Positions 7,587-41,002 of a stretch of 64,000 bases of DNA are shown here, one piece after another (position 1 is the first letter of the stretch; each line of letters begins with the position of its first letter). The notes beneath the pieces are model-generated. The model was given only the letters and a program-made list of their open reading frames with translations. It searched no databases and was not told the DNA's origin. The DNA lies in the NCBI GenBank assembly GCA_963710605.1, contig CAVQBA010000005.1:1-64000 (forward strand), read 5' to 3'. The DNA comes from an uncultured cyanobacterium. Lineage in GTDB: Bacteria; Cyanobacteriota; Cyanobacteriia; Cyanobacteriales; Cyanobacteriaceae. A program made the translations under genes and the position numbers.

Positions 7587-7669
7587 TTAATAATTAATAA
7601 CAGAGTGTTTTTTCTGTAGGGGTGTAAGGCTTACACCCTAATGTATTTGTTATTGTTATATCTTCTAAC

Positions 7670-9187: not shown

Positions 9188-9488
9188 TAAGTTTAGAGAT
9201 TTTTTGTTGAGGGTTTTACCTTTTATAAAAATACCAAGAAATCACCCCTATTTTTTAACTTCGTGATCGAAATAGTGGATTCGTAGTGAATATTTGCAGA
9301 TCGATCGTTATCAATGTTGTTTAAGTCGATATAGCGTTCCTTATCTTTGTAAGGTACAGTTTAGATTTACAAGTCCCCTAGAAACAAAAGCGAAGCATCC
9401 TTAAATTTCCCCCTTACGAAGGGGGCAAGGGGGATGGGGATTTAGGGGGATTGAGAATGTACGTCATAATACTAATATAATTAACTAA

Positions 9489-10097
9489 TTAACAATTATC
9501 GTTTCTGATGCTTCCATCGGGCATAATAGTATTACAAAAAATAAGGTCTATCATTCCGACTCCAGAATAGTCGTCGATCTTAGCTCCTCTGAGGCAACAA
9601 TTGGTCAAATTAGCTTTAGAAAAAATAGTAGCACTACTACTAAGACGAGTCAGGTTAGCTCCAGTCAGATTAACTTGAAACATAGAGGCACTATTGATAC
9701 CAACCCTAGACAAATCAGCACCGCTAAAATCAGTACCATCAAAAGCTCCAGCACACATTTTAGCTCTTTTAAAATTAGCCCTTCGAAAAATAGCATTGGT
9801 CATACAAGCATAATCCAAAGTAGTATTCCTAAAATCCGCATCAGTTCCAATAACATTGTCCATTTTGGCTTTCAGCATAAAAGCAAACCGCAAATTTCCA
9901 TTGGTAAAATTAGTACCCCGCAAATTAGCACACATCAAACGGGCTTTGGACAAGTCAGCTCCAGTGAGGTTACTACCACTCAAATTGATCCGTTTCAAGT
10001 CAGCTTCCCGCAAATCAATTCCACTCAAATCCAGTCCCGAAAAGTCTCTTTCCCCAGTATTGTATCTTCTGAGTAATTCTTCAGCAGTCATGTCCAT
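9489..10097 (-). CDS. Pentapeptide repeat protein
   Basis: Repeated A(D/N)LXX units; N-terminal ELLRRYNTGERDF and C-terminal NTIMPDG. Confidence 0.9.
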   Translation of the reverse strand: MDMTAEELLRRYNTGERDFSGLDLSGIDLREADLKRINLSGSNLTGADLSKARLMCANLRGTNFTNGNLRFAFMLKAKMDNVIGTDADFRNTTLDYACMTNAIFRRANFKRAKMCAGAFDGTDFSGADLSRVGINSASMFQVNLTGANLTRLSSSATIFSKANLTNCCLRGAKIDDYSGVGMIDLIFCNTIMPDGSIRNDNC

Positions 10098-11327: not shown

Positions 11328-13840
11328 GTTAACCTAAGCTCGAACCTCACGGCTTGAACTCGGCTTCAAAACGGTACGTGACACTTTCATGTCATACCGC
11401 TCCTCTCGATAATAGCTACACATTTACTTGTGCAACATCTTAGTGTATTCTTTGATGACAGTGTTTATGGACTAATACTAGATTGTCCTTTTTATTACTG
11501 CCTCCATCTTGGACTGGAGTTACGTGATGAATATCGGTGGAGTCGTCCCACATTATTCTAGTATCACATACTTTACAATTGAACTTTTGTTCTTTATATA
11601 GCTTAGATTTTAATGTGTCTTTGCCATATAAGATACGTAAATTTCTTTCATTCCAGTATTTTTCATCTCCATCATAAGGGCTTTTATTTCCTTTGATTTT
11701 GACGTGTTTATCACCAGCTTTGAATTTATCATGAGTTTTAAGGAGTTCGTTTTCTCCTTTAAATTCCCACTTTCTACCATTAATGGTTGTCCAGTATTTC
11801 TTAACTACCCAGTCTGTACCTTTATTCCTGTGTCTTCTAACTGCCCATCTGAGCAGTCTTTGCCATAGTATATGGTTTAATTTACTGAAGGTTTGTTTGG
11901 AGTTAGAATATCGGTAATAGTTACACCATCGGGTAATCTTTCTTTGTAATGAATTAATCAAATAGTCTTGGTTAATTCCATTCCCTTTAGTAATTAATTG
12001 AGCTAGGCTCTCGTAGTGTTCTTTGATTGCCTCTTTGGAAGGTTGAATATATGTTTTATATCCTAATTTCGTTGTTAAGACTCCATTAGAACAGGAATTG
12101 CTGTGCTTTTTCCCTTTTTCATATTGTCTGATGTTAAATCCTAAAAAGTCTAGCCCTGGTTGATTTCCATTGTACTCATAACGAGTATGTATTATTTTGG
12201 TATTGCTTTGTTTTAGGTTTAATCCCCATTCTTTTAGCCAGTCACCAATTAATTCCTTGCATTTTTCGACTATTTTGATGTCTTCGCAAAGTATCACAAA
12301 GTCATCGGCATATCTAATCAATGTAGGTTTTGATATTTTATAACCATAATTACGTTTGGACATACTAATATATCCTTCTTTGGTGGCTGGAAAATGGTGT
12401 TTTATTAATTCTTCCATTCCATGTAAGGCTATGTTGGCTAATAAAGGCGATATTACTCCTCCTTGTGGTGTACCTTTATTCGGTTTTAATTCACCTCCAT
12501 TTTCGAGTATTCCGCTTTTTAACCATGCCTTAATTTGTCTTCGGAACATGGGTATCTGTGTTACCTTCTTGACCAATTTTTCGTGATCAATTTGGTCAAA
12601 GCACTTTCCAATATCTGCATCTAATACATATTTAGGTTTGTATGTGATGTTTTTTTTGATTGCTTCAATCGCATCCCATGCTCCTCTGTGAGGTCTAAAT
12701 CCATACGAGTTAGGTTCAAACCTAGCTTCCCATTCTGGTTCTAATGCCATTTTCATTAATGCTTGTTTGGCTCTGTCTCTCATTGTGGGAATACCTAGTC
12801 CTCGATTCTCACCGTTTTTCTTAGGAATCCAAACTCTACGTATTTTGTCAGCCTTAGAATCGATATTTAGTTCTTGTACTAATTCGGTTCTTTGGGTGGG
12901 TGTTAGAAGTTTAATCCCATCTACCCCTGCTATTTTTTTTCCCTTGTTGTCTTGAGAGACTTTCCTTACAGCTATTAATTTAGCTGACATCGATTTAGTT
13001 AATAATTTCTGGAGTTTTCTAGCTAATACCAAGTTTCTACTTTGAGATGCTCTATATATCCTACGTTGCAACTTCAAGACTACCGACTGGGCTTTTTGCC
13101 AATCGGTTTGTCTCCATTCAAACTTTGATGTGATTTCCATACTTGTCATGTTGATTGCTTTTTGTAGTTTATAGACTATTTTCAAGTGAGTCTTTGGGCA
13201 TATTCTCACCATTACAATGAGACGTTCGCTTTAAACTCAATCCTTCACCCAATGGGCTTACGCTAGTTACTTCTCTTTTATAAAGAGAGCCATCTTGGGT
13301 TTCACTCGTTCCTATATTTCTTTGTCTGTAACCTTAGAATCTATCTCTCTGCCGAGGACTTTTTATTTGAATCTCGATATAGGGGATACATCCTACATCA
13401 CATTGTCCTGTGGTCATATTTCGACCCTAGTGTCTCAAATTCTTTCACTAGTCAACTTTGACGACAGTTGTCATGATAGTTCGCTTTCGCTATTCATAGT
13501 TACCTACCAAATTCACACTTTTGATTAAATTTATCTTGTAGTGTAATTTTAAATCCCGCTTTACCATTAAAAATTACTAGCTCCTAATGATAGGGAAGTG
13601 GTTTTCACTCCGAGATTGGGAGGAGAGGATTTTAACCTCTAAGAAATATAAGTTGTCAAGGTTCGGTTTTTACTACCTTATTTTTGCGGTAATCCGCATT
13701 AGGTTGTGTAAAAAATTCTTTTTAATACACCTTCTGATCGGTAATTATTATCGAGTACCTTGCTAGGGTTTAGCTACTCTTAAGTATAAGGCTTCTAGCC
13801 TTATACAATAAGAATAGTTCCTACCCTAAACGAGTCGCAC
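11328..13840 (-). mobile_element. Group II intron inserted in nrdB (2513 nt)
   Basis: 5' GTGCGACTCG; domain V GAGCGGTATGACATGAAAGTGTCACGTACCGTTTT; domain VI ending GGTTAAC; removal gives FWI-P-QKL. Confidence 0.95.
11440..13149 (-). CDS. ltrA: Intact intron-encoded RT/maturase/HNH endonuclease (start 13149 preferred over 13212)
   Basis: GIPTMRDR, FEPNSYGFRP, GTPQGGVISPLLANI, RYADD, domain X, CKVC and HHVTP..GGSN..NL..H..CH. Confidence 0.93.
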   Translation of the reverse strand: MTSMEITSKFEWRQTDWQKAQSVVLKLQRRIYRASQSRNLVLARKLQKLLTKSMSAKLIAVRKVSQDNKGKKIAGVDGIKLLTPTQRTELVQELNIDSKADKIRRVWIPKKNGENRGLGIPTMRDRAKQALMKMALEPEWEARFEPNSYGFRPHRGAWDAIEAIKKNITYKPKYVLDADIGKCFDQIDHEKLVKKVTQIPMFRRQIKAWLKSGILENGGELKPNKGTPQGGVISPLLANIALHGMEELIKHHFPATKEGYISMSKRNYGYKISKPTLIRYADDFVILCEDIKIVEKCKELIGDWLKEWGLNLKQSNTKIIHTRYEYNGNQPGLDFLGFNIRQYEKGKKHSNSCSNGVLTTKLGYKTYIQPSKEAIKEHYESLAQLITKGNGINQDYLINSLQRKITRWCNYYRYSNSKQTFSKLNHILWQRLLRWAVRRHRNKGTDWVVKKYWTTINGRKWEFKGENELLKTHDKFKAGDKHVKIKGNKSPYDGDEKYWNERNLRILYGKDTLKSKLYKEQKFNCKVCDTRIMWDDSTDIHHVTPVQDGGSNKKDNLVLVHKHCHQRIH

Positions 13841-14030
13841 GAATCCAGAAATTCTCCCGCATTTGTTGATACAAACCGATCGCCCAAGAATAACGGACAT
13901 CATTTAGTTGCATTAAGTTTGTTGTATTACCAAACCAAACACTTCTATTTTCGATCGCGTCGTCTCCACTGGGATTAAAAATAGGAGTCAAAGGCATTCT
14001 TTCTTCGATTCCTTTTGTTGTGGATACCAT
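13841..14030 (-). CDS. nrdB: Ribonucleotide reductase beta subunit, exon 1
   Basis: GNTTNLMQLNDVRYSWAIGLYQQMRENFWI, then one nucleotide before the intron GTGCG. Confidence 0.9.
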
Positions 14031-17544: not shown

Positions 17545-19991
17545 ATTAAACTAAGCATAGGAGTCGCCTCCTACACTCGTCTTCAAAACCGTGCTTGAAA
17601 GTTTCCCTTCACACGGCTTTTCTGATAATAAACTCCTTTTCATGGATACGAGTCTTTTTAAACTTCCATCTCTGGTAGTCTTGATGTCATGGCAATGTCT
17701 ATGAAGTACTTGTAGATTATTGTATAAGTCCTTTCCTCCTTTGGACTTAGGAATTTTGTGGTCTATTTCTAGTAAGTCTCCATCTTTAAAATTATGTTCA
17801 CAATGATTACATTTTCCTTTTTGGTTCTTGAGTAATGTTGCCATTCTTGTTGAAACTTCAGGATGTTTGCCAATTCTAGCCGTCCAGTAAATCCAATCTC
17901 CGTCATAAGGTGATTTTTCTCCTCTGACTTTAGAATGTCGTTTGATTTTGGTCTCTGAATGGCTCATTGATTTTGTGCCATTATAATTTTCATCTCTGGT
18001 TGAGAACACCCAATTTTTTAATCCGTATGTGTGCCAATAATTCTTGACTACCCATGTTTTAGATTTTATTGGGATGTCTCCTTTCACTCCATCTTTTGAG
18101 TTGTTGATAGACTATATGGTCACATTTGGAGTAAGTCTCCTTGCTACACTTTGTTCTGTAATAGTTTGCCCAACCTCTGATAATAGGATTGAGTTCTCTA
18201 ATTAGAGCTGTCTGTGGTGATGATTTGTGTTTCCTAATAGTATCCCCAATCTTCTTGATATGGAGTTTGATTTTGTCCTTTGATGGTTTTATGATAGTTT
18301 TAAATCCAAGTAGCACACTATGAGTTGATTTCCCTGTGTGTGTTTTTCCAACTTCATATTGTGGGATATCAAATCCTAAGAAGTCAAAACCTGTGCTTCC
18401 TTCATACCTATTTAGTGTATGAGAGATACGGGTTTTACTTGGTTTTAATTCTAGACCGATGTCTTTTAACCAGTTTTCCATAATACTTTTACATTGGTGG
18501 ATAACCTCTAAGTCTTTATGAAGAATCACAAAGTCATCGGCGTATCTGATGAGAGAGATGCTTCTCTCGTTATTTCTCTTGAGTACCCTTTCCATGTTCT
18601 GGCAAATTTTTTGATTTCCAATTCCATACCGTGAAGGGCTATATTAGCTAATAATGGGGAAATTACACCTCCCTGTGGTGTGCCTTCTTTGGTAGGAGAG
18701 AATTTTTGCTCGTCCATGACTCCTCTTTTTAACCATGATTTAATCTCACGTTTTAGCTGAGGATAGGTTTCAAGTTTTCCAAGTAATTTCTCATGGCTTA
18801 TTTTGTCAAAGCACTTAGCAATATCCGCATCTAACACAAACTTCGGTTGATACCTGATTGCATTAAATATCGCTTCTATTGCATCATGACACGACCTTCC
18901 TGGTCTGAATCCGTAACTATTTGGCTCGAATTTGGATTCCCATTGTGGTTCAAGTGCTAATTTGATTAACCCTTGTTTGACTCTGTCTTCCATACAGGGT
19001 ATTCCCAGTGGTCTTTTTTCTCTGTTAGGTTTTGGTATCCATACTCTGCGAGTCGGTTTGGATTTACCAGTTAGCTTCAGTTGACCTACTAATTCAAGGC
19101 GTTGCTTTGGGGTTAGAGATTTAATTCCATCCACACCAGCTGTTTTCTTTCCTTGATTATCCTGTGTAACCTTTCTAGTTGCTAAGAGTTTTCCATAATA
19201 GGATTTGATAAGTAATCGTTGTAAATTGTGAACCAATTTTGTATTGCCGTTTTGACTCGCTCGATATATTCTTTTTTGTAATCGGAACGTCTCTGTCTCA
19301 ACTTTTTTCCAGTTGATAGCATTCCAGCTTCCGAATCCAACTCCTTTACGGTATTGTGTTCCTATTCCTTCTGAGATATTCACTTTATCAATCAGCGTTG
19401 CTGTTGTCATAATTTTCGTACAAAAGTTGACTATATCTTGTTTATCACAGTGTCCACGTCTGCATATCCATTACGTTACATAATGGCTTTAGCTTTTTGG
19501 ACAATCTTACACTCCATAACCTTACGCTGGTTACTGCTCATTGATTACTCTTTGAGAGGTTATGAGGGTTTTCCCGTTCCTTACTTCCTTTTATCTGACT
19601 TTAGACTCCTTCTATCCACCGCCCTATATATTTGACTCCAGTTCAGTCACACAAAACTGCTGGTACATTAGAGATTACCTTTTGGTCTAGCCTATCAGCC
19701 TTTTGGCTAGTTAATCATAACGATGGTTCAGACGAAGATTTGTATTCCTAGTCGTGGTCAGTGTGCTAGATGGGATTCCAGTTTTAGGCTACCAGTTACC
19801 ACCATTTAATCGAGCTTCAATGTATGGTTTACCAACACCAAGTCATTATCGATTATGCTGTCACACGGTCAATCGTGGGTAGGATTTACACCTACAAGGA
19901 AAGTAAAGTTGTCAAGGTACATTGAATGTAAACCTTGCCTAGCTTCCGTTTTGGCTATTTAGCCTAGACTTTTGCTAGAACAAGATTGCAC
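17545..19991 (-). mobile_element. Group II intron inserted antisense to the host gene
   Basis: 5' GTGCAATCTTG at 19991; domain V AAGCCGTGTGAAGGGAAACTTTCAAGCACGGTTTT; 3' end GTTTAAT; removal joins GGT AAT|TAT GGA GAT. Confidence 0.9.
17551..19410 (-). pseudogene. ltrA: Intron-encoded RT/maturase/HNH broken by two frameshifts (~18580, ~18065)
   Basis: Three consecutive ORFs: RT0-4; YADD plus domain X; HNH (CNHC, IDHKIP..GG..NL..HRHCH). Confidence 0.9.
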
Positions 19992-20168
19992 TATGGAGAT
20001 GATTTGATAACTCTGGGAGCAAGATATGTTTTTGAGCGATTAAATTTTAATTTGACACAGACATTAGAAACAGCCGAATATGTTTTACTTAACGGTGGAG
20101 GAAGATTTAATAGTTTTTGGTCTGATGGTAATATTGATATTAGACGCTATCGCGAAAAAATCCCGATT

Positions 20169-20331
20169 TATAGTTATTTCAATTTAGACTGAGACATTAA
20201 TATTGAGAGAAAAAACTTAAGTATTAAACCCGCCTTGCAATTTCCTTGACAAGGCTAACAGAATCCGTTTAATAAATTAAACTAATATTTAATTCGTTAA
20301 AATTGTCTCATTGTTATTTTAAATTACTATA
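20169..20331. mobile_element. MITE-like element with TATAG..CTATA inverted ends at a TA target
   Basis: Imperfect terminal inverted repeats TATAGTTATTTCAATTTAGACTGAGACA / TGTCTCATTGTTATTTTAAATTACTATA; related copies near 34743-34853 (reverse) and 54925-55032. Confidence 0.75.
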
Positions 20332-22607
20332 CCCATTATCATGGGCCTACAAACTTATAAGTTTACCGAAGCGATCGAATCTGAATTTAGAGAAGTGTGT
20401 CAAATCAGTTCAGCACCTATTATTCTTTTTGCTCGTGAGAATATTAGCTACCAAAAATTATGTGAGATGAAATTACCGAGTAATGTAGAAATTCACCATA
20501 GTCAGGATCTCGCTTTTGAATTGGAAGGAAATTCATTTATTGAACAAGCTAAACAAAATAGCACAGATGAATATGTGTTACTTTGTTTGAGACTCGACAG
20601 AGAATCAAGTTCTTTTTTAATTAAGCAATTTTTTGAATGGCAACAAATGGTAAAGAAAAAAGAGAATTTTAATTTTGTCAAACGTGTGTTATCCAAAACT
20701 CAACGAGTTGCTCGCCCTTTAATTTGGCGTTCTACCTGTAATAACATACTAAGTAAATATGATCTGGAAGATTTACCTTATATTCATAAAGACGTTTCCT
20801 CTGAAGCTCAAAATTTTGAAGACTTTTGTCATCAAATAGAAAAAGCAGCATTTATTATGACTGAACGTGCAATTCGATTTGAGCTAAAAGCGTTACAGAG
20901 TGCACTCTGTAACGCGTGGGTTCAGCAAAAAAAGAGATCCTAAGCGCTCATCTCTTGTAACTATTTTGTTGTTTCCTAAAGGAGGAAAATTCGGGGTTAA
21001 TCAGGAAAATTCACTAGGTAAAAACCTATTGAAATACCTGCGAGAATTACGGCATTACCCTTAGCACTTAGATTATTAGATTAGTTATCAAAATGTTAAA
21101 GCAGGGTAAAAAGGGAACTGAGAGGAAATTTCAACCTCAATAGTAAACGCAAGCCAATCAACTACGACTAGCGAAAGCAAACTTCTGTCATGAACTCTCA
21201 AAACGTCAAAGTGGTGAAAAGAAATTGATACACCACGTCCAAAAGGGATAAGGAAAAAAAGTAGGGATATATTCGGGTTACCTACACCGACCTCTAAAAT
21301 TATCTTGGGAGACAGGAAGAGTCTAAGGCGGATGTACCCAACAGAATGGAACGAATTAACCCCAAACTGGTTCTAAAGGATGAAAACATCATTTAGTAGT
21401 CACAAACTTAAGGCATACACCTAGAGTGGGAATGAGATGAGGTAAAAGCCAACGCCTTACTGTAATGGTAATGGATATGCCCACGTACCCGGCAAATTTA
21501 AATAATGGAGTTTTGAGTAGTAATGAATACAGCAAAAACGAGTTTCAAGACTACGTACGCATGGAACACTATACGTGAGCGAAGGTCGAGCAATTGTACC
21601 TTTCAAGTTGCAAAAGAAAATCCATCAAGCGGTCAAATCGGGACAAAATGCGAAAGCTCGTAATCTCCAAAAGCTATTACAAAAGTCATATTTTTCAAAG
21701 CTCTTAGCGGTACGTAAGGTGTCCCAAGACAACTCAGGGAAGAAAACTGCTGGTGTTGATGGTGTTAAATCATTGACTCCTAATCAGAGGTACAAACTGG
21801 TTGATAAAATTGGTGAACATCACAAATCAAAACCGCTACGTAGGGTGCGGATACCTAAAGCTAATCGTAATGAAAAGCGTCCATTAGGAATTCCAACAAT
21901 GCGTGATAGAGCGAAACAAGCCTTGGTGAAATTAGTCTTAGAACCTTACTGGGAGGGCGATTCGTTGAAGTAAGGAGCGTCTAGAAACTAGACAGGTATG
22001 TACTTCTAGGGGATGGTGGAGAGAAAACCACAAGTACCCTAAACTGTTTGTTTGATGAGGGTGAAAGTCCCTCCCATAAAGAGAAATGTGACTCCTTACC
22101 TGCCCACAGTGACCTGACTCGGAATTTAGGAGGCTGAAGCTGGGAACTAGGACGCAATCAGAGACTAAACAGATAAGTCGCACTGGCGTTAATAGGGAGA
22201 CGACACGAGTAAACAGGTTCTATAAAAGTGTCTTAATGGTTGTCTATCCATCTGAAAACAAAAGGATAAGAACAAATCTTCTCACTCTCACCACGTGTTC
22301 CCAGGACAGTGGTATTCTCTGAGAGGAAGATAGGCAAATTGAACCACTCTAAACCGTCAAAATAATCGAACAAACGGAACGAAAAAAAACAATGAACTTG
22401 GTCTTAAGGGTCGAAACTTAAGTAGGCTAGACGAGCAGTACAACTCCAAGCATTGGGTAGGATGAGGCGTAATTGCCAAAAGGATATCAAACAATGTTCA
22501 ATTAAGTAATCTAGGAATTATGACGCAGTTAAAAAAAAACTAGCGATGATTGGCAACAAATCGAGTGGCGTAAATTACGACAAGATTTGTCAGACTACAG
22601 AAGCGAA

Positions 22608-24976
22608 GTGCGACCTGAACTGATTGACTAAATTGAGGTGTTAAACCTCTCTAGGATTTCTACCCTAGACTCACATAGAGTAATCCGTTATCAAACGGTA
22701 CGTCACATTAAGAGTAAGTAATGAAATTAATGGAGTGCAGACGCTAGAAGTAACCATAGCTGGAAGGAACTATCTGGTGAGGTGCAAGTGGGACAAGTAA
22801 AAGGAAGAACGAAAGTGAAGTTATGATTAAACTGCGTTATTGTAGAATAGGTCAAATTGTTCCTGATAGACCTAAACCAAAAAGGTAAGTGGGCGACATT
22901 TGAGGTTTCGTTTCTCAAATGTGTAGAAACAAAATTCCCACCGCAGAAAAGTAACCTTCCTAATTACTTAATAAACTTTAGTCGATACAACAGGGTAAGC
23001 CCTACAAGGTCTAAAAGGGAAATAAATAAACCAATTAGTAAGCTGATGAGTAATCGAAGCCGAATTCTTTGGAGGGTATAGGATGAGCGAAAAAGCGAAT
23101 GTCAATTTGTAATGAATTGAATAGAGGTTCAAAATTTGCCTCGGACCGAAAGGAAAGCAGAATTCGTTTAGGTCACATATGAAATTGAAAACTTTAGAAG
23201 GATTGGACTCAATGAAAAGTTGGATACATCAACCTGATGTAAATGGACAACGAGAACAATTGACTGATTGGAATCAAATTAATTGGAAGAAAGTCAGGAA
23301 AATTGTTAAATCACTACAGAGAAGAATATTTCGTGCAAGAAAGCTAGAGCAGTGGAAAAATCTACGAAGATTACAGAAGCTGTTAAATAAATCGTATGCC
23401 AACGTATTGCTAAGTGTTAGACAAGTTACACAATTGAATCATGGTAGAAATACTGCAGGGATTGACGAACAAGTAGTTTTAAATCCAGCTGAAAGAGTGA
23501 AGTTTGTCGATAACTGGCAAGAAGAAAAATCGAAACCCACGAAAAGAGTGTACATTCCCAAGTCAAATGGCAAAAGACGACCCCTTGGAATACCGACTGT
23601 AAAAGATAGAGTTGAACAGGCAATAGCTAAGAATTCACTCGAACCTGAATGGGAGGTAATATTCGAGCCTAATTCATATGGGTTCAGAAAAGGAAGAAGT
23701 TGTCAAGATGCAATAGAACAATGTTTCCTTAACTTGAAACAGGGAAGGCATAAGTGGATATTAGATGCGGATATTGAGGGCTTCTTTGATAACGTCAGAC
23801 ATGAAACAGTATTAGAACTAATTGGTTCTCATCCATCGAGAAATAAAATCGAAGGGTGGTTGAAAGCAGGATACACCGAAAATGGAAAACATTATGAGAC
23901 AACCAGAGGAACACCTCAGGGTGGAATCATAAGCCCATTATTAGCAAATATAGGACTACATGGATTAGAAAACCTAATCAGAAAAGTCAAACTGCCAAAA
24001 GACAAATGGGGAAATAGACCTAAATTAGGGTTCTGTCGTTACGCGGATGATTTTATAATCACTGCGGAAAATAAACAAAGGCTCTTGCAGATACAAATAC
24101 TGGTAAATGGTTGGTTAAAAGAAAGAGGCTTGAAATTAAGCACGGAAAAAACACGGATAATCCACATAAATGAAGGGTTTGACTTTCTAGGTTTTAATCT
24201 TCGTCATTATGACGGAAAATTGTTGATTAAACCGCAGAAAGAAAAAGTACTACAATTCTGTAAAGAATTAGGTAAAACTATAAAAACTTGTGCCTCGTGG
24301 AAACAGGAAAATCTAATCGCTAAAATCAACCCTATGTTAAGAGGGTTCGGTAACTATTATAAAGGAGTGGTTAGCAAACGAGTTTATAGCTATATAGATA
24401 GTAGGACATTCAGATATCTTTTAAGGTGGGCGAAACGTAGGCATCCGATGAAGTCTATGACATGGATAAAGAATAGATATTTTCCAAGAAAAGAAAAACA
24501 GGAATGGAACTTTGCGTGTCAGTACGAAGGTAGAAAAGGTAAAAATATAGAGAAAGTTCTGTATGATATCTCGAAAACAAAAATAGTACGTCATGTAAAA
24601 GTAAAAGGGTCTAATTCACCTTTTGACCCAGAACTGTCGGAATATTGGGAGAAACGTCGATGCAAAGAGAATAAACAAATATGGGCAAAGGGTTCATTAT
24701 ATGAAACACTAGCCAAGAATCAAAATTATAAATGCTCTTTGTGCGGTGAATTTATTATCAATGGAGAAGAGACGGAAGTTCATCATATAGTACCTGTGAG
24801 TGAAGAGGGCTTGAATCATATAAGCAACCTAGAACACTTACACAGGAGTTGTCATAAGCAGGTACATGGACGAACTAGTAATCGAGCTTGAAGTGTGGCT
24901 TGAGCCACATGAGCTGAGAGGCTCACGTGTGGTTCTTAGAGGGGTGAGGACTGGTAACAGTTTAATCCTACTCGAC
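22608..24976 (+). mobile_element. Group II intron C nested in the RT gene of intron B (innermost, apparently intact)
   Basis: 5' GTGCGACCTG; domain V GAGCCACATGAGCTGAGAGGCTCACGTGTGGTTC; 3' ACTCGAC; loop TTCGTT (22907-22912) pairs with exon AGCGAA. Confidence 0.93.
23179..24891 (+). CDS. ltrA: Intact intron C RT/maturase/HNH endonuclease
   Basis: RPLGIPTVKDR, GTPQGGIISPLLANI, RYADD, CSLC, HHIVP..NLEHLHRSCH. Confidence 0.93.
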   Translation: MKLKTLEGLDSMKSWIHQPDVNGQREQLTDWNQINWKKVRKIVKSLQRRIFRARKLEQWKNLRRLQKLLNKSYANVLLSVRQVTQLNHGRNTAGIDEQVVLNPAERVKFVDNWQEEKSKPTKRVYIPKSNGKRRPLGIPTVKDRVEQAIAKNSLEPEWEVIFEPNSYGFRKGRSCQDAIEQCFLNLKQGRHKWILDADIEGFFDNVRHETVLELIGSHPSRNKIEGWLKAGYTENGKHYETTRGTPQGGIISPLLANIGLHGLENLIRKVKLPKDKWGNRPKLGFCRYADDFIITAENKQRLLQIQILVNGWLKERGLKLSTEKTRIIHINEGFDFLGFNLRHYDGKLLIKPQKEKVLQFCKELGKTIKTCASWKQENLIAKINPMLRGFGNYYKGVVSKRVYSYIDSRTFRYLLRWAKRRHPMKSMTWIKNRYFPRKEKQEWNFACQYEGRKGKNIEKVLYDISKTKIVRHVKVKGSNSPFDPELSEYWEKRRCKENKQIWAKGSLYETLAKNQNYKCSLCGEFIINGEETEVHHIVPVSEEGLNHISNLEHLHRSCHKQVHGRTSNRA

Positions 24977-26621
24977 TTTATAAAGCGGTTCAAGTTGAAG
25001 ACATGGCGAAAGCTAAACGGCTACAAAGACTAGTCATGAACTCCTTTGGTGCAAGAATGTTAGCAATCCGACAGGTTACTCAACTAAATAAGGGCAAGAA
25101 AACAGCGGGTGTCGATGGTAAAACAGCGTTAAGCTTTGAGGAAAGATTCAACCTTGAAAAAGACCTTAAAAGCAATGCCAAACACTGGAAACATCAGGAA
25201 TTAAGAGAAGTAATTATTCCCAAAAAGAATGGTAAAACTCGTACATTGAAAATTCCTACCATCGCTGAGAGAGCATGGCAATGTTTAATTAAATTCGCAC
25301 TTGAACCAGCTCATGAAGCAACTTTCCATGAAAGAAGCTACGGTTTCAGAACTGGCAGAAGCACTCACGACGCTCAAAAGTATATATATACGAACTTGCA
25401 GAGCAATCACGGCGGTATCCAGAAGCGAGTACTCGAATTAGACATAGAAAAATGTTTTGATAGAATAAATCATGAATCAATACTTACAAGGGTAATATCA
25501 CCCACCTTCATAGTCAACGGATTACGGAGGTGTCTAAAAACAGGTATAAACCCAAAATTCCCCGAACAAGGAACGCCACAAGGAGGAGTGGTCAGTCCGC
25601 TATTAGCAAATATAGCACTAAATGGAATAGAAACCATAGGGCAAAGTGTAAGGTACGCCGATGATATGGTATTCTTCTTGAAACCAAAAGATGATGAGAA
25701 TCTGTTGTTGGAAAAAGTTAGCACATTTCTTGCAGAAAGAGGAATGAATGTCAGTAAAAGTAAGACGAAAGTGACAGCCTCGATAGATGGATTTGACTTC
25801 TTAGGATGGAGATTCTTCGTTCAAAGTAACAACGGAAAGTTTAGAAGTACTCCCTCAGAGGAGAATTTTAAGGCATTCCGAGATAAAGTGAAATTCATCG
25901 TCAATAACTCGAATTATGGAGCACAAATCAAAGCCGAAAAACTCGCATCAGTAGTAAGAGGATGGCGGAACTACCACAAATACTGTAAATTAGACGGCTC
26001 TAAGTTCGACTTATGGGCAACAAAATACAGAACTTTTAAAGTGTTCCTAAAACAAAAAACTATTAACAGGTATCAAGCCTTAAAACTAGTAAAAAAAGCA
26101 TTTCCTGAAATTGGATACAGCGAGAATAAATTTGTAAATGTCAAAGGTAAAAAATCACCATATGATGGAGACCTAACTTACTGGTCAAAAAGAAACAGTG
26201 CCTTATATGACAACGCAACTGCTAAAGCTTTGAAGAAACAAAACCATTCATGCGTCCGATGTGGATTAAAACTCATATCAGATGAAACTATACATTTACA
26301 CCATGTAGATGGAAATCATTCCAACTGGAAAACTAAAAACTTAGAGGCAATTCACCAAAGTTGCCACCAATTGGAACACATGAGCAAAAGCTGTAAAAGC
26401 TAAGATATTCGGGAGCTGTATGCCACGAAAATGGCACGTACAAATCTAACTGAGAGGGTCGGGGCATAATAGCCTCACTCGACTCAACCAGCAAAATTTG
26501 AAGGAACTAGTTATGGTTTTAGACCAGCTCATTCTGCACACGATGCTATCGAAAAGATATTCTCCTCTATCAAACAAAAGCCCAAATGGGTGTTGGATGC
26601 CGATATTGCAAAATGTTTTGA

Positions 26622-28219
26622 GTGCGATTCGTTCAGTCGAAACCTAGAGATAGGGGGATGACTGGCAAGACTACTAAGTAACCCTTGGGTTGAGTTCGCA
26701 CTTTAATCCTTAGTAGTTTAAACCTTGACAACTTCATAGTCTTATAGGTGAGTATGAGTACCCTAGAAAATACAAGTCCTATCTTTCAGACGCAGAAATG
26801 AAAACAATTTCCTTACGGTAGCGACTAGCCATCAATCCGTAAAGCAGGAAATAAAGCGGAAACAACGACTATTAGCCTAAAATGGTCAACCGTAAGTAAG
26901 TCTGTATGGATAACAAAAGTGAAGTCACTGTCAGATTTATCGTGAATTTTAGGTAGTGAAAAGGCTGATACACTACTTGAACCAAAATGGTCATAAGAAA
27001 AGGGTGAGATAAGAAATCGAATCTATATCTCAAGCATTACCCTAAAACTCGGTAAAGAGGTGACATCCTAACCAGACAAAACAAAGACAATGAGGAACGA
27101 AGTAACCACTTTATTACTCTCCTATTCTTGGTCAAAGGACAGCGTAGCACTCAGCTAAGACGTAAAATATGTAGCAATACAGGTAGTAGAGTGTGAAGAT
27201 TGGGTTAAAAGCCAAAGCCTACTGTAATAGGTAGGATATGCAGACGAACCCACGATGATATGGAATAAATAGCTGTAATTCAAGAGTACATACATTATGA
27301 CCACTGATTCAAAACAGAAGGATAAATTAAATAACTGGCGTGACATCAAATAGAAAGATGTAGAACGTCAGGTATGGAAGCTCCAAACACGGATATTTAA
27401 AGCATCTCGTTGTGGTGATGTCGTAAAGGTACATAAACTCCAAAGATTGTTGTTAAGTTCAAACAATGCGAAATTACTTGCCGTTAGAAAAGTGACTCAA
27501 GATAATTCAGGTAAAAAGACAGCAGGAGTGGATGGGGTTAAATCACTGTCCCCAGTAGCACGTCTGAGACTTGTAAAACAACTCAAATTGGGTTTGAAAG
27601 CGAGACCAACCCGTAGAGTATGGATACCCAAACCAAACGGGGAAAAAAGACCGCTCGGAATACCAATCATGAGAGATAGAGCATTACAGGCATTAGTTAA
27701 ACTAGCATTAGAACCCGAATGGGAGGCACTCTTTGAACCAAATAGTTATGGATTCAGAATTGGTCGCTCGTGTCACGATGCCATTGAAGCTATCTATTGT
27801 GCCATCAATAAGAAGTCAAAATATGTCTTAGATGCTGACATTACAAAGTATTTTGAACGTATCAATCATAAAAAATTATTGGAAAAGGTTAACACCTATC
27901 CAACAATGAGAAGACAATTAAAACAATGGCTTTGTAGTGGCGTAATGGACGGTAAGAATTTATTTTCAACAACTGAAAGAACACCGCAAGGCGGATTTAT
28001 TTCACCCCTTTTAGCAAACATAGCGTTACACGGATTAGAAGACTTAATCATGAATCTTGCTCCTAAATTCAATATGAAGGATAAAAGAGGAAGACAATTA
28101 GGTAAAAGAGATAAGTTAAAATCTATCTCACTAATTCGATATGCTGATGACTTTGTTTGTCTTCATGAGGATAAAGAAGTAATTAATTCGGTAAAAAAGG
28201 AAATAGAAATATGGTTAAA
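26622..28219 (+). mobile_element. Group II intron D (5' part) in the RT gene of intron A; RT ORF from 27297 has a TAG at 27351 and is cut off by the IS
   Basis: 5' GTGCGATTCG directly after DADIAKCF-GA; loop TCGAAT (27017-27022) pairs 5/6 with exon TTTTGA; RT0 to YADD present. Confidence 0.88.
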
Positions 28220-29379
28220 AGACATCTCCAAAATATAATATTATCAAAAAATTAGTATAATAACTTTGACTTATAAAGTAAAAAATATGAAAGATAATGA
28301 ATAATTATACTTGTAACTATATTCAAAAACATCCTCAAGAAACAAAAAGACTATTAGGTATTAATTATCAACAGTTACAAGACTTAATAAAATATCTGAA
28401 ATTACTAGAAAAACAAGAAAGAAAAAAACAAGAACAAAAGAAAATTAGGATCAATAAAGCTGGAGGTGGAAGGGATGAAAAAATAAGCGAAGAAGAACAA
28501 ATAATAATGACTTTAATTTATCTAAGACATCATCTTAATTTTCAATTATTAGGATTAATGTTTCAAGTAAGTGAAAGTACCGCCAATAATATTTTTCACA
28601 AATGGCAAAAATTATTAGAATTAGCTTTACCGTTTTCATTGTTAGAACAAGTAAAAAAGTGCGAAGAAAGCCTCGAAAAAATTCAAGAAATATTAACTGA
28701 TTATGAACTAATTGTAGATACCTCAGAGCAAGAAATAGAGAGGAGTATAGACTATGAACAACAAAAAAAGTATTATTCAGGTAAGAAAAAGATGCATACT
28801 GTAAAAAATCAGATAATTTGTCTGTCCAAAAGCAGAAGATATAGTTGATTTGGTTTCAGGAGAACGAGGATCAAAAGCCGATTTAACAATTTTTTGGCGA
28901 GAAAATATTGATAAGTTTGAGCTCAACCAGAAGTTTAGTGGGGATAAAGCTTATGTAGGCGAACGACAAATGAAAAACTCCGAAAAAGAAACCAAAAAAT
29001 CGAGAATTAACATCACAAGAAATGGAGAAAAACAAAAATATATCTTCTGAGAGAATATTTGTCGAGCATCTAATTAGAATAATCAAAATATTCAAGGTAA
29101 CAGGAGAAAAATTTAGGTTGAAAAAAGAAGAATATCAATCAGTTTTTTTAAGCGTTTGTGGATTAGTAAGATTAAGAATGGGAACTCTAATAATTAAACA
29201 TCCGAAAACGAGTGAAATTGAAAAAATAAATGATGTTAAGTTAAGCCATATTTTTTCATTAAAATTAAATTTTCTTTGATTTTTAACGAAGTAATAAGGG
29301 TTAAACAAAGCGATCGCTACGAGCGTAAAATAGTTGTAAATGCTTATAATGAAAGGTTTACAAATTTTTGGAGATGTCT
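28220..29379 (+). mobile_element. IS5-family-like insertion sequence remnant with frameshifted transposase (28297-29279)
   Basis: 14-bp inverted repeats AGACATCTCCAAAA / TTTTGGAGATGTCT; HTH (LGLMFQVSESTA), IVDTSEQ, YYSGKKKMHT, GDKAYVG and RIFVEH spread over three ORFs. Confidence 0.85.
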
Positions 29380-29413
29380 AATAATGTAGTAATGACAATA
29401 CCCATGTTATTGA

Positions 29414-29713
29414 GGAGTGGTATCACCCTTACTAGCTAATATAGCCCTTCACGGTATGGAAAACGAAATCAAAAAGTACGCCAGAACATTAAAAGGAAAT
29501 AAATCAAAAAATGAATCGTCTCTGAGTTTAATCAGATATGCTGACGATTTTGTTATCCTACATCCAAAAAAAGAAGTAATTTTTGAATGTAAACAAATAA
29601 TAGAAAGATGGCTTCAAGACAAGAAACTAATTAGAGAGGAGCGAGGTGAGGGGAAACTTTCATGCCTCGTTTTGAAGACGAGTCAGAATGGTGACGTTCT
29701 GGCTTAGTTTAAC
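29414..29713 (+). mobile_element. Remnant of a fifth group II intron E (RT4-5 fragment fused to domains V-VI)
   Basis: SPLLANIALHG..IRYADD differs from the intron D copy; domain V GAGCGAGGTGAGGGGAAACTTTCATGCCTCGTTTT; 3' end GTTTAAC. Confidence 0.75.
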
Positions 29714-30380
29714 CGTAACGTTTTGAATGGGAGTTTAGGATGGTGACATCCTATTAGGCCTCCCCTAATGTCTTCATGTCAGGCATTTTAGGCTATTTAC
29801 TGGTCAACCAGTAGTTTTAGTTCCCAATCCTCAATTATTGCCAAAGTTCGTGCAATATACGAATATAGCATGAAAGATAAAGACAATATAAATCTACATG
29901 AAATATAAATAGGATTTTGCCGATGATGTATTTGTAGATAAAATATCAGTCAACAGATTACGATAAAATAAGTACTTGTACAAAATTATTTGTAGATTTT
30001 ATTATAGAGGTATCCATGTTTGCACCCTCTATCTAGTAAAATCACATCGATATAAAAAATTTATGATGATATATAATTAATTTTATTTACCTACTTATGA
30101 GGCAAATTTTGATGATAGTTTTTGCTCATAGTTGGAAATGAGTCGATAATTTAGACATCTAGTAAAATCATTTTTAGTGTTTTGATTATTTTTCATTGTA
30201 TGATGATAATTCTATCGAGTTTTTTATAACTTGTGTCAATACAAAGTACTAGTAAGAGAATTAATCATAGTTAATCGCTAATAACGAAATATCTTAATAG
30301 CTTAAATGGTATATTAGTAATTAGTAATTGTTATAGTTTTTATTTTTAAGTCACCCTCCACCGACAATGAATTTATAATC

Positions 30381-31265
30381 ATGACGACTAAATTACAAAA
30401 AGCGATCGCAAACAAAGAATTTGTGATTACCGCTGAAGTCACACCACCAAAAGGGGGAAACCCTCAAAGGATGTTAGAAGTGGCTCAGTTACTTAAAGAT
30501 AGAGTTCATGGTATCAATATTACCGATGGTAGCAGAGCCGTGTTAAGAATGTCTTCTATTGCCGCTTGTGCCTTACTTAAACAAAATGATATTGAACCAA
30601 TTTGTCAGGTGACAGGTAGAGATAGAAATTCGATCGCATTACAAGGAGATTTAATGGGGGCTTATAGCCTCGGTATTCGTAATATTTTAGCCTTAACAGG
30701 TGATCCGATCAAAGCAGGTGATCATCATCAAGCTAAGGGGGTTTTTGAACTAGAATCTGTTCGTTTATTACAACTAATGAACAAATTAAACTCAGGTTTT
30801 GATTTGAATGATAAACCTTTATGTGATGGTCATTTGGACTTGTTTACAGGGGCGGCAGTCGATCCACAATCAAAAAGTTGGTCTGGTTTACAACGTCGAT
30901 TCGATCGTAAATTAATGGCAGGAGCAAAGTTTTTTCAAAGTCAATTAATTAGTGATTTTGATAAATTAGATCGATTTATGAATCAAATTGCTGTTGGTTG
31001 CGATCGACCTATTCTAGCAGGTATATTCTTATTAAAAAGTGCTAAAAATGCTCGTTTTTTAAATGCTAAAGTACCCGGTGTTCAAATACCAGAACATATA
31101 ATTTTGAGATTAGAAAAAGCTAATAATCCTTTAGAAGAAGGTATTAATATCGCCGCAGAGCAAGTGAAAATGGCTCAAGATATTTGTCAGGGAGTACATT
31201 TAATGGCTGTTAAAAAAGAAGAATTAATTCCGCAAATTTTAGATCAAGCTAATTTAAAACAATAG
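30381..31265 (+). CDS. metF: Methylenetetrahydrofolate reductase
   Basis: TAEVTPPKG, GRDRN, LALTGDP, GAKFFQSQ. Confidence 0.9.
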   Translation: MTTKLQKAIANKEFVITAEVTPPKGGNPQRMLEVAQLLKDRVHGINITDGSRAVLRMSSIAACALLKQNDIEPICQVTGRDRNSIALQGDLMGAYSLGIRNILALTGDPIKAGDHHQAKGVFELESVRLLQLMNKLNSGFDLNDKPLCDGHLDLFTGAAVDPQSKSWSGLQRRFDRKLMAGAKFFQSQLISDFDKLDRFMNQIAVGCDRPILAGIFLLKSAKNARFLNAKVPGVQIPEHIILRLEKANNPLEEGINIAAEQVKMAQDICQGVHLMAVKKEELIPQILDQANLKQ

Positions 31266-31804
31266 ATATTAAATAATATTTACTATTTGTTTTTGAACTA
31301 TTTTCTTATTTTTTATGTTTGTAAATCACGAGGATTTTATCGACTAATTTATCGATTATTAAACTAAGTTTATGGACAAAAGTTCAATTGTTTGGCGTAA
31401 ATTGATATTGCTGAGTTGTCTTGCCATTTTTCTTGAGTTTGTTGGCTAATCATTTGTCTCAACCTAAAAAGCTTTTAATCGCTTACTTAAGGCTTTTAAC
31501 ATTTTACCTGTTTTAATAGCAACAAAAGACTGACTGTAATGTAAATGTTGCTTCTACAAAACTAACCTTTACCCTTTGCTCTTTGCACGAGTGCCCTTTG
31601 TTGACCAACTGTATATGAAAACAAAACTCGATCGTAATTAAAAAATAGTAAAATATAAAAATAAATATTATGTATAATTACTGATAAATCTGTTGTTAAT
31701 TGTTAATTCTCAATTGATTAGTTGACCTTTGACTGATAAGATAGCAAACAATAGTAAAAATTACTAATATAAGTAAAATTTGGTTTCACATATAGAGGAA
31801 AATT

Positions 31805-32809
31805 ATGACTCAAGATAGAGTAGTAATTATTGGTGTAGCAGGAGATTCTGGTTGCGGAAAATCTACCTTTCTACGCCGTTTAGAAGATTTATTTGGTAAA
31901 GAATTTATGACAGTTATCTGTTTAGATGACTATCATAGTCTCAATCGTGTAGGAAGAAAAGAAGCTGGTGTAACCGCATTAAACCCCGAAGCTAACAACT
32001 TCGATTTAATGGCAGAGCAAATTAAAGATTTAAAAAACGGCAAAGGTATTGATAAACCTATTTATAACCATGATAATGGTAAGTTAGAAGGTCCTGAGAG
32101 AGTCGAACCTAACAAAGTAATCGTAATCGAAGGTTTACACCCTTTATATGACAAAAGAGTTAGAGATTTAGTTGATTTTAGTGTCTATCTTGATATTGGT
32201 GAAGAAGTTAAGATTCAATGGAAAATTCAACGTGATATGGCAGAGCGTGGTCATACTTACGAAGATGTACTTGCTTCAATTAATGCGAGAAAACCCGATT
32301 TTACAGCTTATATTGAAGTTCAAAAACAATATGCTGATATTGTGCTTCAAGTATTACCAACTGAATTAATTGAGGATAAAGAAGCTAAAATACTTAGAGT
32401 TCGTTTAATTGAAAAAGAAGGTATCGAACATTTTGATCCTACCTATTTATTTGACGAAGGTTCAACAATCGATTGGCGTCCTTGTGGACGTAAATTAACC
32501 TGTGCTTATCCCGGTCTAAAAATGTATTATGGACCTGATAACTACATGGGTAATGAAGTTTCCATCCTTGAAATTGATGGTCAATTTGATAACTTAGAAG
32601 AAATTATTTACGTTGAAAGTCACTTAAGTCGTACAGGTACTAAATACTACGGCGAGATGACTGAACTATTACTCAAACATAAAGATTACCCCGGTTCTAA
32701 TAACGGGACTGGTTTATTCCAAGTTTTAGTTGGTTTAAAAATGCGTGAAACATATGAAGAATTGACTGGTACACTTTCTAAGCCAAATTCTGAAATCGCT
32801 CAAGTGTAA
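31805..32809 (+). CDS. prk: Phosphoribulokinase
   Basis: GVAGDSGCGKST, ICLDDYH, KIQRDMAERGH. Confidence 0.98.
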   Translation: MTQDRVVIIGVAGDSGCGKSTFLRRLEDLFGKEFMTVICLDDYHSLNRVGRKEAGVTALNPEANNFDLMAEQIKDLKNGKGIDKPIYNHDNGKLEGPERVEPNKVIVIEGLHPLYDKRVRDLVDFSVYLDIGEEVKIQWKIQRDMAERGHTYEDVLASINARKPDFTAYIEVQKQYADIVLQVLPTELIEDKEAKILRVRLIEKEGIEHFDPTYLFDEGSTIDWRPCGRKLTCAYPGLKMYYGPDNYMGNEVSILEIDGQFDNLEEIIYVESHLSRTGTKYYGEMTELLLKHKDYPGSNNGTGLFQVLVGLKMRETYEELTGTLSKPNSEIAQV

Positions 32810-32843
32810 TTTTTTCTTATTTCCAAAAATCTTAAAAAAAAGT

Positions 32844-32886
32844 TGTGGCTAATTATTTTATGACGAGTAATTAGTCACATTTTTTA
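32844..32886 (+). terminator. Intrinsic terminator after prk
   Basis: Stem TGTGGCTAATTA / TAATTAGTCACA followed by a T tract. Confidence 0.65.
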
Positions 32887-33307
32887 TGCTATAACACTTC
32901 TACAAATACCTATATAACAATAGTTTTAGTGTTTTTATCTATCGTAACTATAATAGCGACTACTATAAAAATTATTATTGAAAATTGTTGCTATCTAATT
33001 AAAATATGTAATATTGTTGAAAATTTAAAATTATTGTTTTTAGCTTAATTTCAAATTAATCAGTTGATTCGTAGTTTAAAGGTCTGTGTTGAGTAGATTA
33101 TGGTTTATCAATTCTATTACCTATCTTCTAAACCATAAAAAAATTTAAGGTTGATAATTATTTTTATTCATTATTACTAAATATTCTCAATTATTGTTAA
33201 TTAGTTATTAATAATTAATCCTAAATTTTTATTTTATTTTTTACAATATAGATATTATTTAACTATAATTAAATAATAAATAATAAAAGCTAATTAAACA
33301 GTTATTG

Positions 33308-39943: not shown

Positions 39944-41002
39944 ATGACCATTGCAGTCGGACGTGCTCCGTCAGAAAGAGGTTTATTTGATGCTCTTGAT
40001 GACTGGCTCAAAAGAGACAGGTTTGTCTTTGTTGGTTGGTCTGGAATCTTATTATTCCCTTGTGCTTACTTAGCATTAGGTGGTTGGTTAACAGGTACTA
40101 CCTTCGTAACCTCATGGTACACTCATGGTTTAGCTAGTTCTTACTTAGAAGGTGCTAACTTTTTAACTGTAGCAGTATCAAGCCCTGCTAACGTATTCGG
40201 TCACTCCTTATTATTTTTATGGGGTCCTGAAGCACAAGGTGATTTAACTCGCTGGTTTCAAATCGGTGGTTTATGGACATTTGTCGCACTTCATGGTGCT
40301 TTTGCCTTAATCGGCTTCATGTTGCGTCAATTTGAGATTTCTCGTTTAGTCGGGATTCGTCCTTATAATGCGATCGCTTTCTCAGCTCCTATCGCTGTAT
40401 TTGTCAGTGTTTTCTTGATGTATCCTTTAGGACAATCAAGCTGGTTTTTTGCTCCTTCATTTGGAGTAGCAGGAATCTTCCGTTTCATCCTCTTTTTACA
40501 AGGTTTCCATAACTGGACACTAAATCCTTTCCATATGATGGGAGTAGCAGGAGTATTAGGTGGTGCATTATTATGTGCAATTCACGGTGCAACCGTAGAA
40601 AACACCTTATTCCAAGATGGTGAACAGGCAAACACATTCCGTGCGTTTGAACCAACACAAGCAGAAGAAACTTATTCAATGGTAACTGCTAACCGTTTCT
40701 GGTCTCAGATATTCGGTATTGCTTTCTCTAACAAACGTTGGTTACACTTCTTTATGTTGTTTGTACCCGTAACAGGTTTGTGGATGAGTGCGATCGGTAT
40801 CGTCGGTTTAGCATTTAACTTAAGAGCATATGATTTTGTATCTCAAGAGTTAAGAGCGGCAGAAGATCCAGAATTTGAAACATTTTATACTAAAAACATC
40901 CTATTAAACGAAGGGTTGCGTGCATGGATGGCACCACAAGATCAACCCCATCAAAAATTTGAATTCCCTGAGGAGGTACTTCCACGTGGTAACGCTCTCT
41001 AA
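39944..41002 (+). CDS. psbD: Photosystem II D2 protein
   Basis: [16 protein letters not shown] to [10 protein letters not shown]. Confidence 0.99.

Follow-up and report, generated by a model that had tools for sequence, protein, structure and literature searches.

We have found that a 64,000-nt stretch of DNA from an uncultured cyanobacterium (the window; contig C5:1-64000 of its genome) carries, at 20945-29769 on the forward strand, a nest of group II introns: one outer intron relic (A) that holds introns B, C and D, an insertion sequence (IS) and a fragment (E) of a fifth intron. The reading that best fits the sequence, with a probability of roughly 0.88, is that the nest grew as group II introns retrohomed site-specifically, one after another, into those already present, and then decayed, and that the clade of intron C keeps returning to sites in the reverse transcriptase (RT) genes of other introns. 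Four distinct sites were used in the nest: the RT0 motif, the codons of an EPxWE motif, the RT3 motif and domain V.

The source genome is a draft of 3.93 Mb (33% G+C, seven contigs, 85% complete). RF00029, the model of group II intron domains V-VI, has 12 matches genome-wide, five of them inside the window. The genome is designated G000 below; C2, C4, C5 and C6 with coordinates are its contigs, G-numbers are compared genomes and L-numbers are loci. To derive the anatomy of the nest, we used reading frames and self-BLAST and compared the region with an intact relative of A on contig C6. Relatives of the 5′ ribozyme part of each inner intron were gathered from 401 genomes of the same order, of which 81 hold C-like, 113 B-like and 91 D-like ribozymes; the alignments took in only relatives with placeable 5′ ends (21 rows for C, 30 for B and 28 for D). 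Further loci (L129, L130 and L131) came from a protein-seeded scan that took one genome per species. An Rfam search of 19500-33000 at E ≤ 1 returned domain V families only and no domain I-IV model, and family alignments were therefore used for domain I.

The elements of the nest are listed here by window position (IBS and EBS, intron- and exon-binding sites; IEP, intron-encoded protein; ORF, open reading frame).

20945-21954 (+): intron A, 5′ piece; domains I-IV and the RT N-terminus up to ..LEPYW(E); RVT_N match
21942-21954 (+): target of B in A; IBS2 AACCTT (21942-21947) and IBS1 CTGGGA (21949-21954), codons E-P-Y-W-E
21955-26489 (+): intron B, with C nested within it; 5′ end GGGCGATTCG, 3′ tail CGACTCAACC
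22236-22241 (+): EBS2 of B, ATGGTT; pairs 5/6 with AACCTT
22299-22304 (+): EBS1 of B, TCCCAG; hairpin ACCAC..GTGGT
22595-22607 (+): target of C in B; IBS2 CTACAG and IBS1 AAGCGAA, codons L-Q-K-R-(I), RT0; target without C, CTACAGAAGCGAA/TTTAT
22608-24976 (+): intron C; 5′ end GTGCGACC; predicted ligated junction on excision ..CAGAAGCGAA/TTTATAAAG
22840-22845 (+): EBS2 of C, TTGTAG; pairs with CTACAG
22907-22913 (+): EBS1 of C, TTCGTTT; hairpin CATTTGAG..CTCAAATG
23179-24891 (+): IEP ORF of C, 570 aa
24900-24976 (+): domains V-VI of C; RF00029, 59.5 bits
26411-26488 (+): domains V-VI of B; RF00029
26490-26621 (+): intron A, middle piece; RT segment AKFEGTSYGFRP..LDADIAKCF(D)
26610-26621 (+): target of D in A; IBS2 AAAAT (26610-26614) and IBS1 TTTGA (26617-26621), codons KCF(D)
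26622-28219 (+): intron D, 5′ two thirds; 5′ end GTGCGATTCG; RVT_N and RVT_1 matches
26946-26950 (+): EBS2 of D, ATTTT; pairs 5/5 with AAAAT
27017-27022 (+): EBS1 of D, TCGAA(T)
28220-29379 (+): IS inside the RT gene of D; 14-bp inverted repeats AGACATCTCCAAAA and TTTTGGAGATGTCT; HTH_Tnp_4 and DDE_Tnp_4 matches
29412-29713 (+): fragment E of a fifth intron; RT4-6 piece joined through an internal deletion to domains V-VI; RF00029, 50.6 bits
29714-29769 (+): intron A, 3′ piece; 3′ strand of domain V and domain VI, ending ..CCCCTAAT; matches C6:364873-364827

Intron A thus survives as three pieces. The first ∼85 nt of its 5′ piece are gone, so that no GUGCG is present, and the remainder is ∼75% identical to the intact intron G000:C6:367317-364800 (−) from position ∼87 of that intron onwards. 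Intron B lies inside the RT codons E-P-Y-W-E of A, and its removal restores the frame of A as ..LEPYWE/AKFEGTSYGFRP (a slash marks the point of insertion), where YWE/AKFEG of A stands against YWEAQFEG of the intact relative. Intron C was inserted into the RT of B after the L-Q-K-R-(I) codons of RT0; with C removed, B reads ..FVRLQKR/IYKAVQ in frame, compared with FRLQKRIFKAV in the B-like locus L032. The outer ORF is therefore restored on removal of B from A and of C from B, while D, which entered A at the K-C-F-D codons (DADIAKCFD, RT3), keeps its 5′ junction only. The 3′ end of B was first placed by Rfam at 26488; we replaced it by 26489 on the basis of the frame of A and of the 3′ tails of B-like relatives (L092 and L093), with which the tail of B agrees. 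The transposase (DDE_Tnp_4) of the IS is frameshifted and split across three frames, and 32 nt (29380-29411) separate the IS from fragment E, whose 3′ end abuts the 3′ strand of domain V of A.

A first-pass annotation, made from the letters of the window, had assigned EBS1 to one loop in each of B, C and D. The pairings are as it stated for B (6/6 between TCCCAG and CTGGGA) and for D (5/6, one G-U, between TCGAAT and TTTTGA at 26616-26621); for C, where it gave 6/6, the loop TTCGTT(T) and AAGCGAA (22601-22607) form 7/7 pairs, one of them G-U. By themselves, the hexamer matches do not exceed chance. A 6/6 partner of CTGGGA appears in 68% of shuffles of the 5′ part of B, which has a second such site at 22004; the corresponding figure for C is 30%, with a second TTCGTT at 23163, and 69 sites reach 5/6 within the 5′ 679 nt of D.

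Comparison within families is far more informative. In all three families RNAalifold places the loop at the tip of a hairpin whose stem is conserved and whose loop sequence varies. Pairing was scored as the best 6-nt duplex, G-U allowed, between the loop and the last six exon bases of the same locus, rows without six flank bases being omitted. At the homologous column, 9/19 C-like, 13/29 B-like and 8/25 D-like loci pair 6/6 with their own exon, against 1.8% (C), 5.4% (B) and 3.3% (D) when loops are set against the exons of other loci. Perfect pairs of loop and exon are seen in L008 (AGGATGT with ACATCCT), L020 (TAGCCT with AGGCTA), L045 (GTTGAC with GTCAAC), L049 (ATCCTA with TAGGAT), L074 (TCGGAA with TTCCGA) and L080 (TGGAAT with ATTCCA).

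Each family also has a second loop, 60-70 nt upstream of EBS1, that covaries with the exon at about −13 to −8 and is the position of EBS2. Among C-like loci, L002 has TTGAAG opposite CTTCAA and L003/L094 have TTGCAA opposite TTGCAA; in the B family the EBS2 column covaries with exon positions −12 to −8 in L037, L039, L045, L047, L049, L050 and L051. Another candidate for EBS2 of B, AGGTTC at 22217, was rejected, since among relatives this stretch is conserved rather than covarying, the covarying loop being CTTA[NNNNN]AAG. Because the hairpins are conserved, loop and exon covary above the control and a second covarying loop is present, comparative analysis identifies all three loops as true EBS1, and EBS-IBS pairing accounts for each insertion site. 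B, C and D thereby show the complementarity of EBS1 and EBS2 to the 5′ exon that is expected of group II introns, and the initial assignment of the loops was borne out.

The same annotation had proposed that the nested introns specialise in homing into conserved RT motifs of other introns. This part of the proposal is supported for C, whose clade is found at RT0 with a sister clade at RT1, and is not supported for B and D. We scored the flanks of C-like introns by tblastn with four RT proteins at 19 loci with usable flanks. Besides the window copy, L002 lies after KLQKR, L005 after VTQLNTG and L006 after VTKDNRA. One C-like intron (L018) is in domain VI of a B-like intron and another (L008) lies 275 nt past an RT gene. 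L013 (G379) was inserted 19 nt downstream of the 5′ GUGCG of another intron. Two other loci are in tnpB and one is in an epimerase gene, and the remainder have no RT match in the flank. Insertion near a 5′ GUGCG is also seen at L101 (G209), 15 nt downstream of that of another intron, which makes the extreme 5′ end of introns a recurring landing place.

The RT0 site recurs in other genomes. Genome G128 (L091) has a full twintron, in which removal of the inner intron gives ..VFKLQKR/IYRASKRGD.., in frame, at RT0. In G255 (L094, with L003) the exon ends with ..KLQTR at a contig end, again RT0, and the EBS loops had predicted the site TTGCAA.AAGAGAA beforehand. At L129 the RT0 site reads ..LQQS/IYEA.. 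and the host RT continues in frame. The RT0 clade thus occupies one site in four genomes (G000, G128, G255 and that of L129) of at least three GTDB families. The RT1 site is seen in G252 (L092) as ..QVTQLNTG/KKTAGIDG.., in frame, and the same VTQLNxG/KKTAG site is also occupied in G333 (L093) and G143 (L096); in G224 (L097) a C-like intron lies within domain I of a B-like intron. In a maximum-likelihood tree built from the 5′ parts of the ribozymes, support is 89/96 for the RT0 clade and 100/100 for the RT1 clade, both of which lie within a clade supported at 97/97. The exons of C and L002 differ at the Leu, Gln and Arg codons (CTA CAG AAG CGA vs CTT CAA AAG AGA), and the loops carry compensating differences (EBS2 TTGTAG vs TTGAAG; EBS1 TTCGTTT vs TTCTTTT). 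For C, then, specialisation for the RT motifs of other introns is supported by these comparisons.

Another arrangement was noted at L098 (G369:C1:4004000-4013000), where a complete, oppositely oriented intron splits a C-like ribozyme at 344/347 and the whole adjoins a 16S rRNA gene.

The relatives of B and D behave otherwise. An RT ORF is the host at 1/29 B-like and 1/26 D-like loci, in both cases the window's own copy, and the tabulated flanks lie mostly outside introns, the outcome named beforehand as speaking against the proposal. D-like relatives are mostly in tnpB and other genes; by their junction peptides, eight of the 26 loci (L062, L064, L065, L066, L069, L084, L085 and L087) are at the DRDxNAAxN codons of tnpB. 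When the flank ORFs of all three families are taken together (31 in total), Pfam assigns the TnpB TNB domain to 11 of them and RVT_N to three, with DnaB, integrase, DUF2887, methyltransferase and epimerase as single cases. Related introns at the same site of different host introns were found for the C clade (RT0), its sister clade (RT1) and the pair of E and intron C2b described below, and not for B or D. The B and D families appear to retarget freely, and their landings in A are best read as single events.

The 5′ exons of the 26 D-like loci have conserved positions whatever the host gene (G-20 in 19/26, T-18 in 17, A-14 in 18, A-13 in 16 and A-1 in 19), which hints that these positions are read by the IEP. 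The RT3 site of D and the usual tnpB target of its family both have GAY-NNN-GAY at −26 to −18, and the site of D shares GAT at −20 to −18. That the RT3 site might mimic the tnpB target is a lead that arose post hoc and is not put forward as a result.

Fragment E closely resembles intron C2b on contig C2 (94% to G000:C2:8485-8694 and 97% to 9498-9610). C2b belongs to a second nest in this genome, at C2:3819-9648, in which a D-like intron, C2a (from 3819), is inserted in a tnpB gene at ..TSQTC/PNC.. and an IS630-like element (about 5090-6215) cuts the RT of C2a. Intron C2b (7219-9598) splits domain V of C2a into halves, 7195-7218 and 9599-9609, which together fold into a canonical two-helix domain V with a 2-nt bulge (−16.5 kcal/mol). 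Fragment E ends at the point of domain V of A that is homologous to the position of C2b in C2a. Judged from these junctions, one intron type entered the same domain V site of two unrelated hosts in one genome; a domain V flank was not seen among 25 other aligned E-like loci from the 401 genomes. EBS1 covaries with the exon in E-like loci too (L104, TTTGAT with ATCAAA; L127, TTGGGA with TCCCAA). A further group II intron of the window, at 17545-19991 (−), is 71% identical to C2b; it has the 5′ end GTGCAATC and an RT represented by three frameshifted ORFs.

The elements differ in their state of preservation. C and D start with GTGCG, in agreement with the GUGYG consensus; B starts with GGGCG, unlike 27/29 aligned B-like relatives, which start with GTGCG, and the 5′ end of A is absent. 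RF00029 matches C with the highest score of the nest; E also scores above the gathering cut-off of 40 and B, at 39.9 bits, is borderline. Of domain V, A retains the 3′ strand only and D has lost its own. The IEP of C has RVT_N, RVT_1, GIIM and HNH all within one 570-aa frame. In the IEP of B, RVT_N, RVT_1 and a weak GIIM match are present and the N-terminus is broken, with +4 and −1 indels and three stops at its start relative to L032 and L033. The IEP of D has RVT_N and RVT_1 only; it carries a TGG>TAG change at about 27350-27352 (‘WRDIK*K’) and is cut after the YADD region. In A no RT sequence is found past RT3, and everything between RT3 and domain V is gone. C alone appears to be intact, with its canonical 5′ end, domains V-VI and full RT/X/HNH frame, and from its sequence it could still be mobile; A and B are probably unable to splice, given their absent or mutated 5′ ends. 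The nest would then be mostly a fossil, possibly with one live tenant, C.

The closest PDB relative of the C IEP is 6ME0_C (3.8e-127, residues 27-567), an entry that we take to be the T.el4h retroelement bound to DNA. This maturase/RT serves as a model for target DNA binding by the EBS loops together with the IEP, its link to C being sequence similarity. On the 5′ side of the nest, a ∼165-nt dispersed repeat (window 20168-20331; >100 copies over all contigs, 70-90% identity) lies directly upstream of the ORF adjoining the truncated intron A.

Unoccupied motifs equivalent to the used sites, which the first-pass annotation had pointed out in other RT genes of the window, do exist there and also elsewhere in the genome. 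For D, the identical 14 nt occur at C4:1258693 and nine more RT3 sites pair 5/5 with its EBS1; for B, both EBS1 and EBS2 have 6/6 partners at C6:366194. Empty sites are to be expected for B and D, which are dead. For C, the empty site at C2:7887 pairs 7/7 with EBS1, and those at C2:4560, C4:1258227 and C6:366528 are complementary to EBS2 in full (6/6) and to EBS1 at 6/7. These empty RT0 sites would be odd if C were active, and argue for low activity of C or for further requirements.

We infer the following route and order of events. The EBS2 and EBS1 loops in domain I of the intron RNA would pair with 11-13 nt of DNA that chanced to encode a conserved RT motif of a resident intron, taking B into A at EPYWE, C into B at LQKRI (RT0) and D into A at DADIAKCFD (RT3); the fifth intron, E, would have entered domain V of A. 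The excised ribonucleoprotein would also read a few positions through its protein, in the D family maybe G-20 and T-18. After recognition the intron would reverse splice into the DNA and be copied by its own RT. Within the C clade the EBS loops follow the synonymous differences of each host. During the decay, A would have lost its first ∼85 nt and the stretch from RT3 to domain V, B would have gained its GGGCG start and the indels at the start of its IEP, and D would have acquired a nonsense codon and the IS and lost its 3′ part. The retrohoming scheme itself belongs to the established knowledge of group II introns and of the 6ME0 structure family.

Several observations weigh against a history of repeated homing with a preference of the C clade for RT sites. 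The flank has no RT in 11/19 C-like loci. Two members of the RT0 clade, L130 and L131 (from Okeania sp. and a cyanobacterial metagenome-assembled genome), sit in a pentapeptide-repeat gene at ..VKLQGA (AAGCTTCAAGGAGCTA); their EBS2 (TTGGAG) and EBS1 (TAGCTTT) match that site, whose DNA resembles the KLQKR site of L002, and the two look like cases of retargeting out of introns. Since these two lie outside introns and 11 of the 19 flanks have no RT, intron targeting is a tendency of a C subclade and not a rule of the family. Pairing with the own flank is poor (3-4/6) in L004, L006, L007, L034, L046 and L054; the EBS1 loop of L006 mismatches its own flank, which the loop of L004 would fit, and the 5′ parts of L007 and L004 are unmatched or replaced. 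EBS1 of D (5/6 with a G-U) and EBS2 of B (5/6) pair imperfectly, and the near-cognate RT0 sites for C in this genome are empty. The sample, moreover, consists of 401 genomes of one order and one protein-seeded scan, in which related genomes are mutually non-independent; splicing is a prediction, and this repeat-rich stretch is taken as assembled in the contig.

A competing reading is that there is no specialisation at all. Introns would then retarget at random and survive mainly where they do no harm, in other mobile elements; conserved RT motifs would seem favoured only through the abundance, neutrality and mutual likeness of intron ORFs, and B, C and D would be chance survivors. The many unrelated sites of B-like and D-like relatives, with a single RT ORF among the 29 and among the 26, fit such a picture, as do TnpB in 11/31 pooled flank ORFs, the single landings in genes for DnaB, integrase, methyltransferase and epimerase and the two RT0-clade members in a pentapeptide-repeat gene; the use of mobile elements as targets is described as a general habit in the available text of two reports (PMC4424553, PMC2882425). 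What such random landing does not lead one to expect is the repeated use of the same codon phase: one clade holds RT0 in four genomes spread over at least three GTDB families and has its EBS1 and EBS2 fitted to the codons of each host, and its sister clade holds RT1 in three or four. We regard an absence of specialisation as possible, though less likely than not.

It is highly improbable that the loops are chance complements rather than exon-binding sites and that the insertions came about by recombination or non-specific retrotransposition. Hexamer complements do turn up in 30% (C) and 68% (B) of shuffles and are trivially common for D, whereas the homologous hairpins covary with exons in three families well over the cross-pairing control, each family has a covarying EBS2, and the junctions are precise and the host frame is restored. 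An assembly artefact, by which the nest would be a collapse or chimeric join of similar dispersed copies, seems unlikely to nearly the same extent: the genome is a seven-contig draft of 85% completeness and the D/IS/E part has untidy joints, and against this a close second copy of B, C or D is absent from the genome, where the best matches reach 65-75% identity, the joints coincide exactly with intron ends whose EBS-IBS pairs match, and closed or large contigs of other genomes show the same architectures (L091, L092 and L097). Successive retrohoming followed by decay remains our preferred account.

Nests of this kind have been described. In Methanosarcina acetivorans up to five group II introns are nested by homing into related introns (PMC4424553, PMC2882425); as far as these sources describe it, that nest resembles ours in that introns lie within introns with no host gene at stake, and differs from it in that ours is cyanobacterial rather than archaeal, uses four sites in one nest and shows an RT0 site kept across genomes by one clade. 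In Thermosynechococcus elongatus, twintrons with TeI3 inside TeI4 have been studied and their mobility shown experimentally (Mohr, Ghanem & Lambowitz 2010, PMC2882425), and proliferation by inserting into other mobile elements, whether ISs or introns, is named there as a strategy. According to the sections available, those twintrons share with our nest the cyanobacterial IIB type, an inner intron at one conserved site of the outer ORF region and an IS in one intron ORF. In T. elongatus the insertion point is between the first and second ATG of the IEP, and the inner introns are ORF-less and mutually identical; our nest uses conserved RT motifs as sites, has ORFs in its inner introns and, known from sequence, is mostly dead.

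In twintrons of the Porphyridium plastid one inner intron occurs at the same domain IV/IEP site of two outer introns (Perrineau et al. 2015, PMC4476101), a parallel to E and C2b in two hosts and to the RT0 clade. The differences, within the part of that report that was available, are the red-algal plastid setting, outer IEPs reduced to remnants and a site that is not described as a conserved RT motif. Group II introns in IS605-family transposons of Anabaena and Nostoc, mentioned in passing in the accessible text of another study (Kapitonov, Makarova & Koonin 2016, PMC4810608), fit the D family, with eight of its 26 loci in tnpB and C2a in tnpB as well; that text gives no account of target motifs or EBS. 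Homing into the ORFs of other introns is thus already known from Methanosarcina and Thermosynechococcus, our observations are only mildly new in this respect, and the known picture of group II intron biology is unchanged. We found no description of RT0 or RT1 clades with compensating EBS changes across cyanobacterial families, nor of domain V homing, a weak negative since the literature covered did not include the original archaeal paper and supplements.

A retroelement that aims at motifs which host retroelements cannot afford to change may secure lasting and harmless homing sites that are carried along by the host; such renewable-target logic has been stated for Methanosarcina and Thermosynechococcus in the portions seen of a review (Zimmerly & Semper, PMC4424553) and of the twintron study (PMC2882425). 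We would give even odds to the broader idea that some cyanobacterial clades of ORF-carrying introns are obligate or near-obligate hyperparasites of group II introns, one specific for RT0, its sister for RT1 and a third for domain V. If this is true, the sites would be kept constant by selection on the host intron, EBS1 and EBS2 of the parasite would track synonymous codons across families, and nests like the present one would be a fossil record of arms-length coevolution. The material also offers concrete reagents: an apparently intact intron, C, whose 13-nt target is defined; several naturally empty near-cognate sites in its own genome; and natural compensatory EBS/IBS mutants at RT0 (four genomes), at RT1 (three or four) and in the retargeted pentapeptide-repeat pair. 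Nested introns are noted to defeat automatic intron finders and to fragment RT gene calls, as the accessible text of one report puts it (PMC8919778).

Outside the nest, the window contains a further group II intron at 11334-13900 (−), with a 590-aa RT ORF at 11440-13212. A full-length match to the IsrR antisense RNA (186.7 bits) at 41382-41568 (−) lies opposite a 477-aa ORF at 40920-42353 (+), presumably isiA; the IsrR match marks the window as cyanobacterial.

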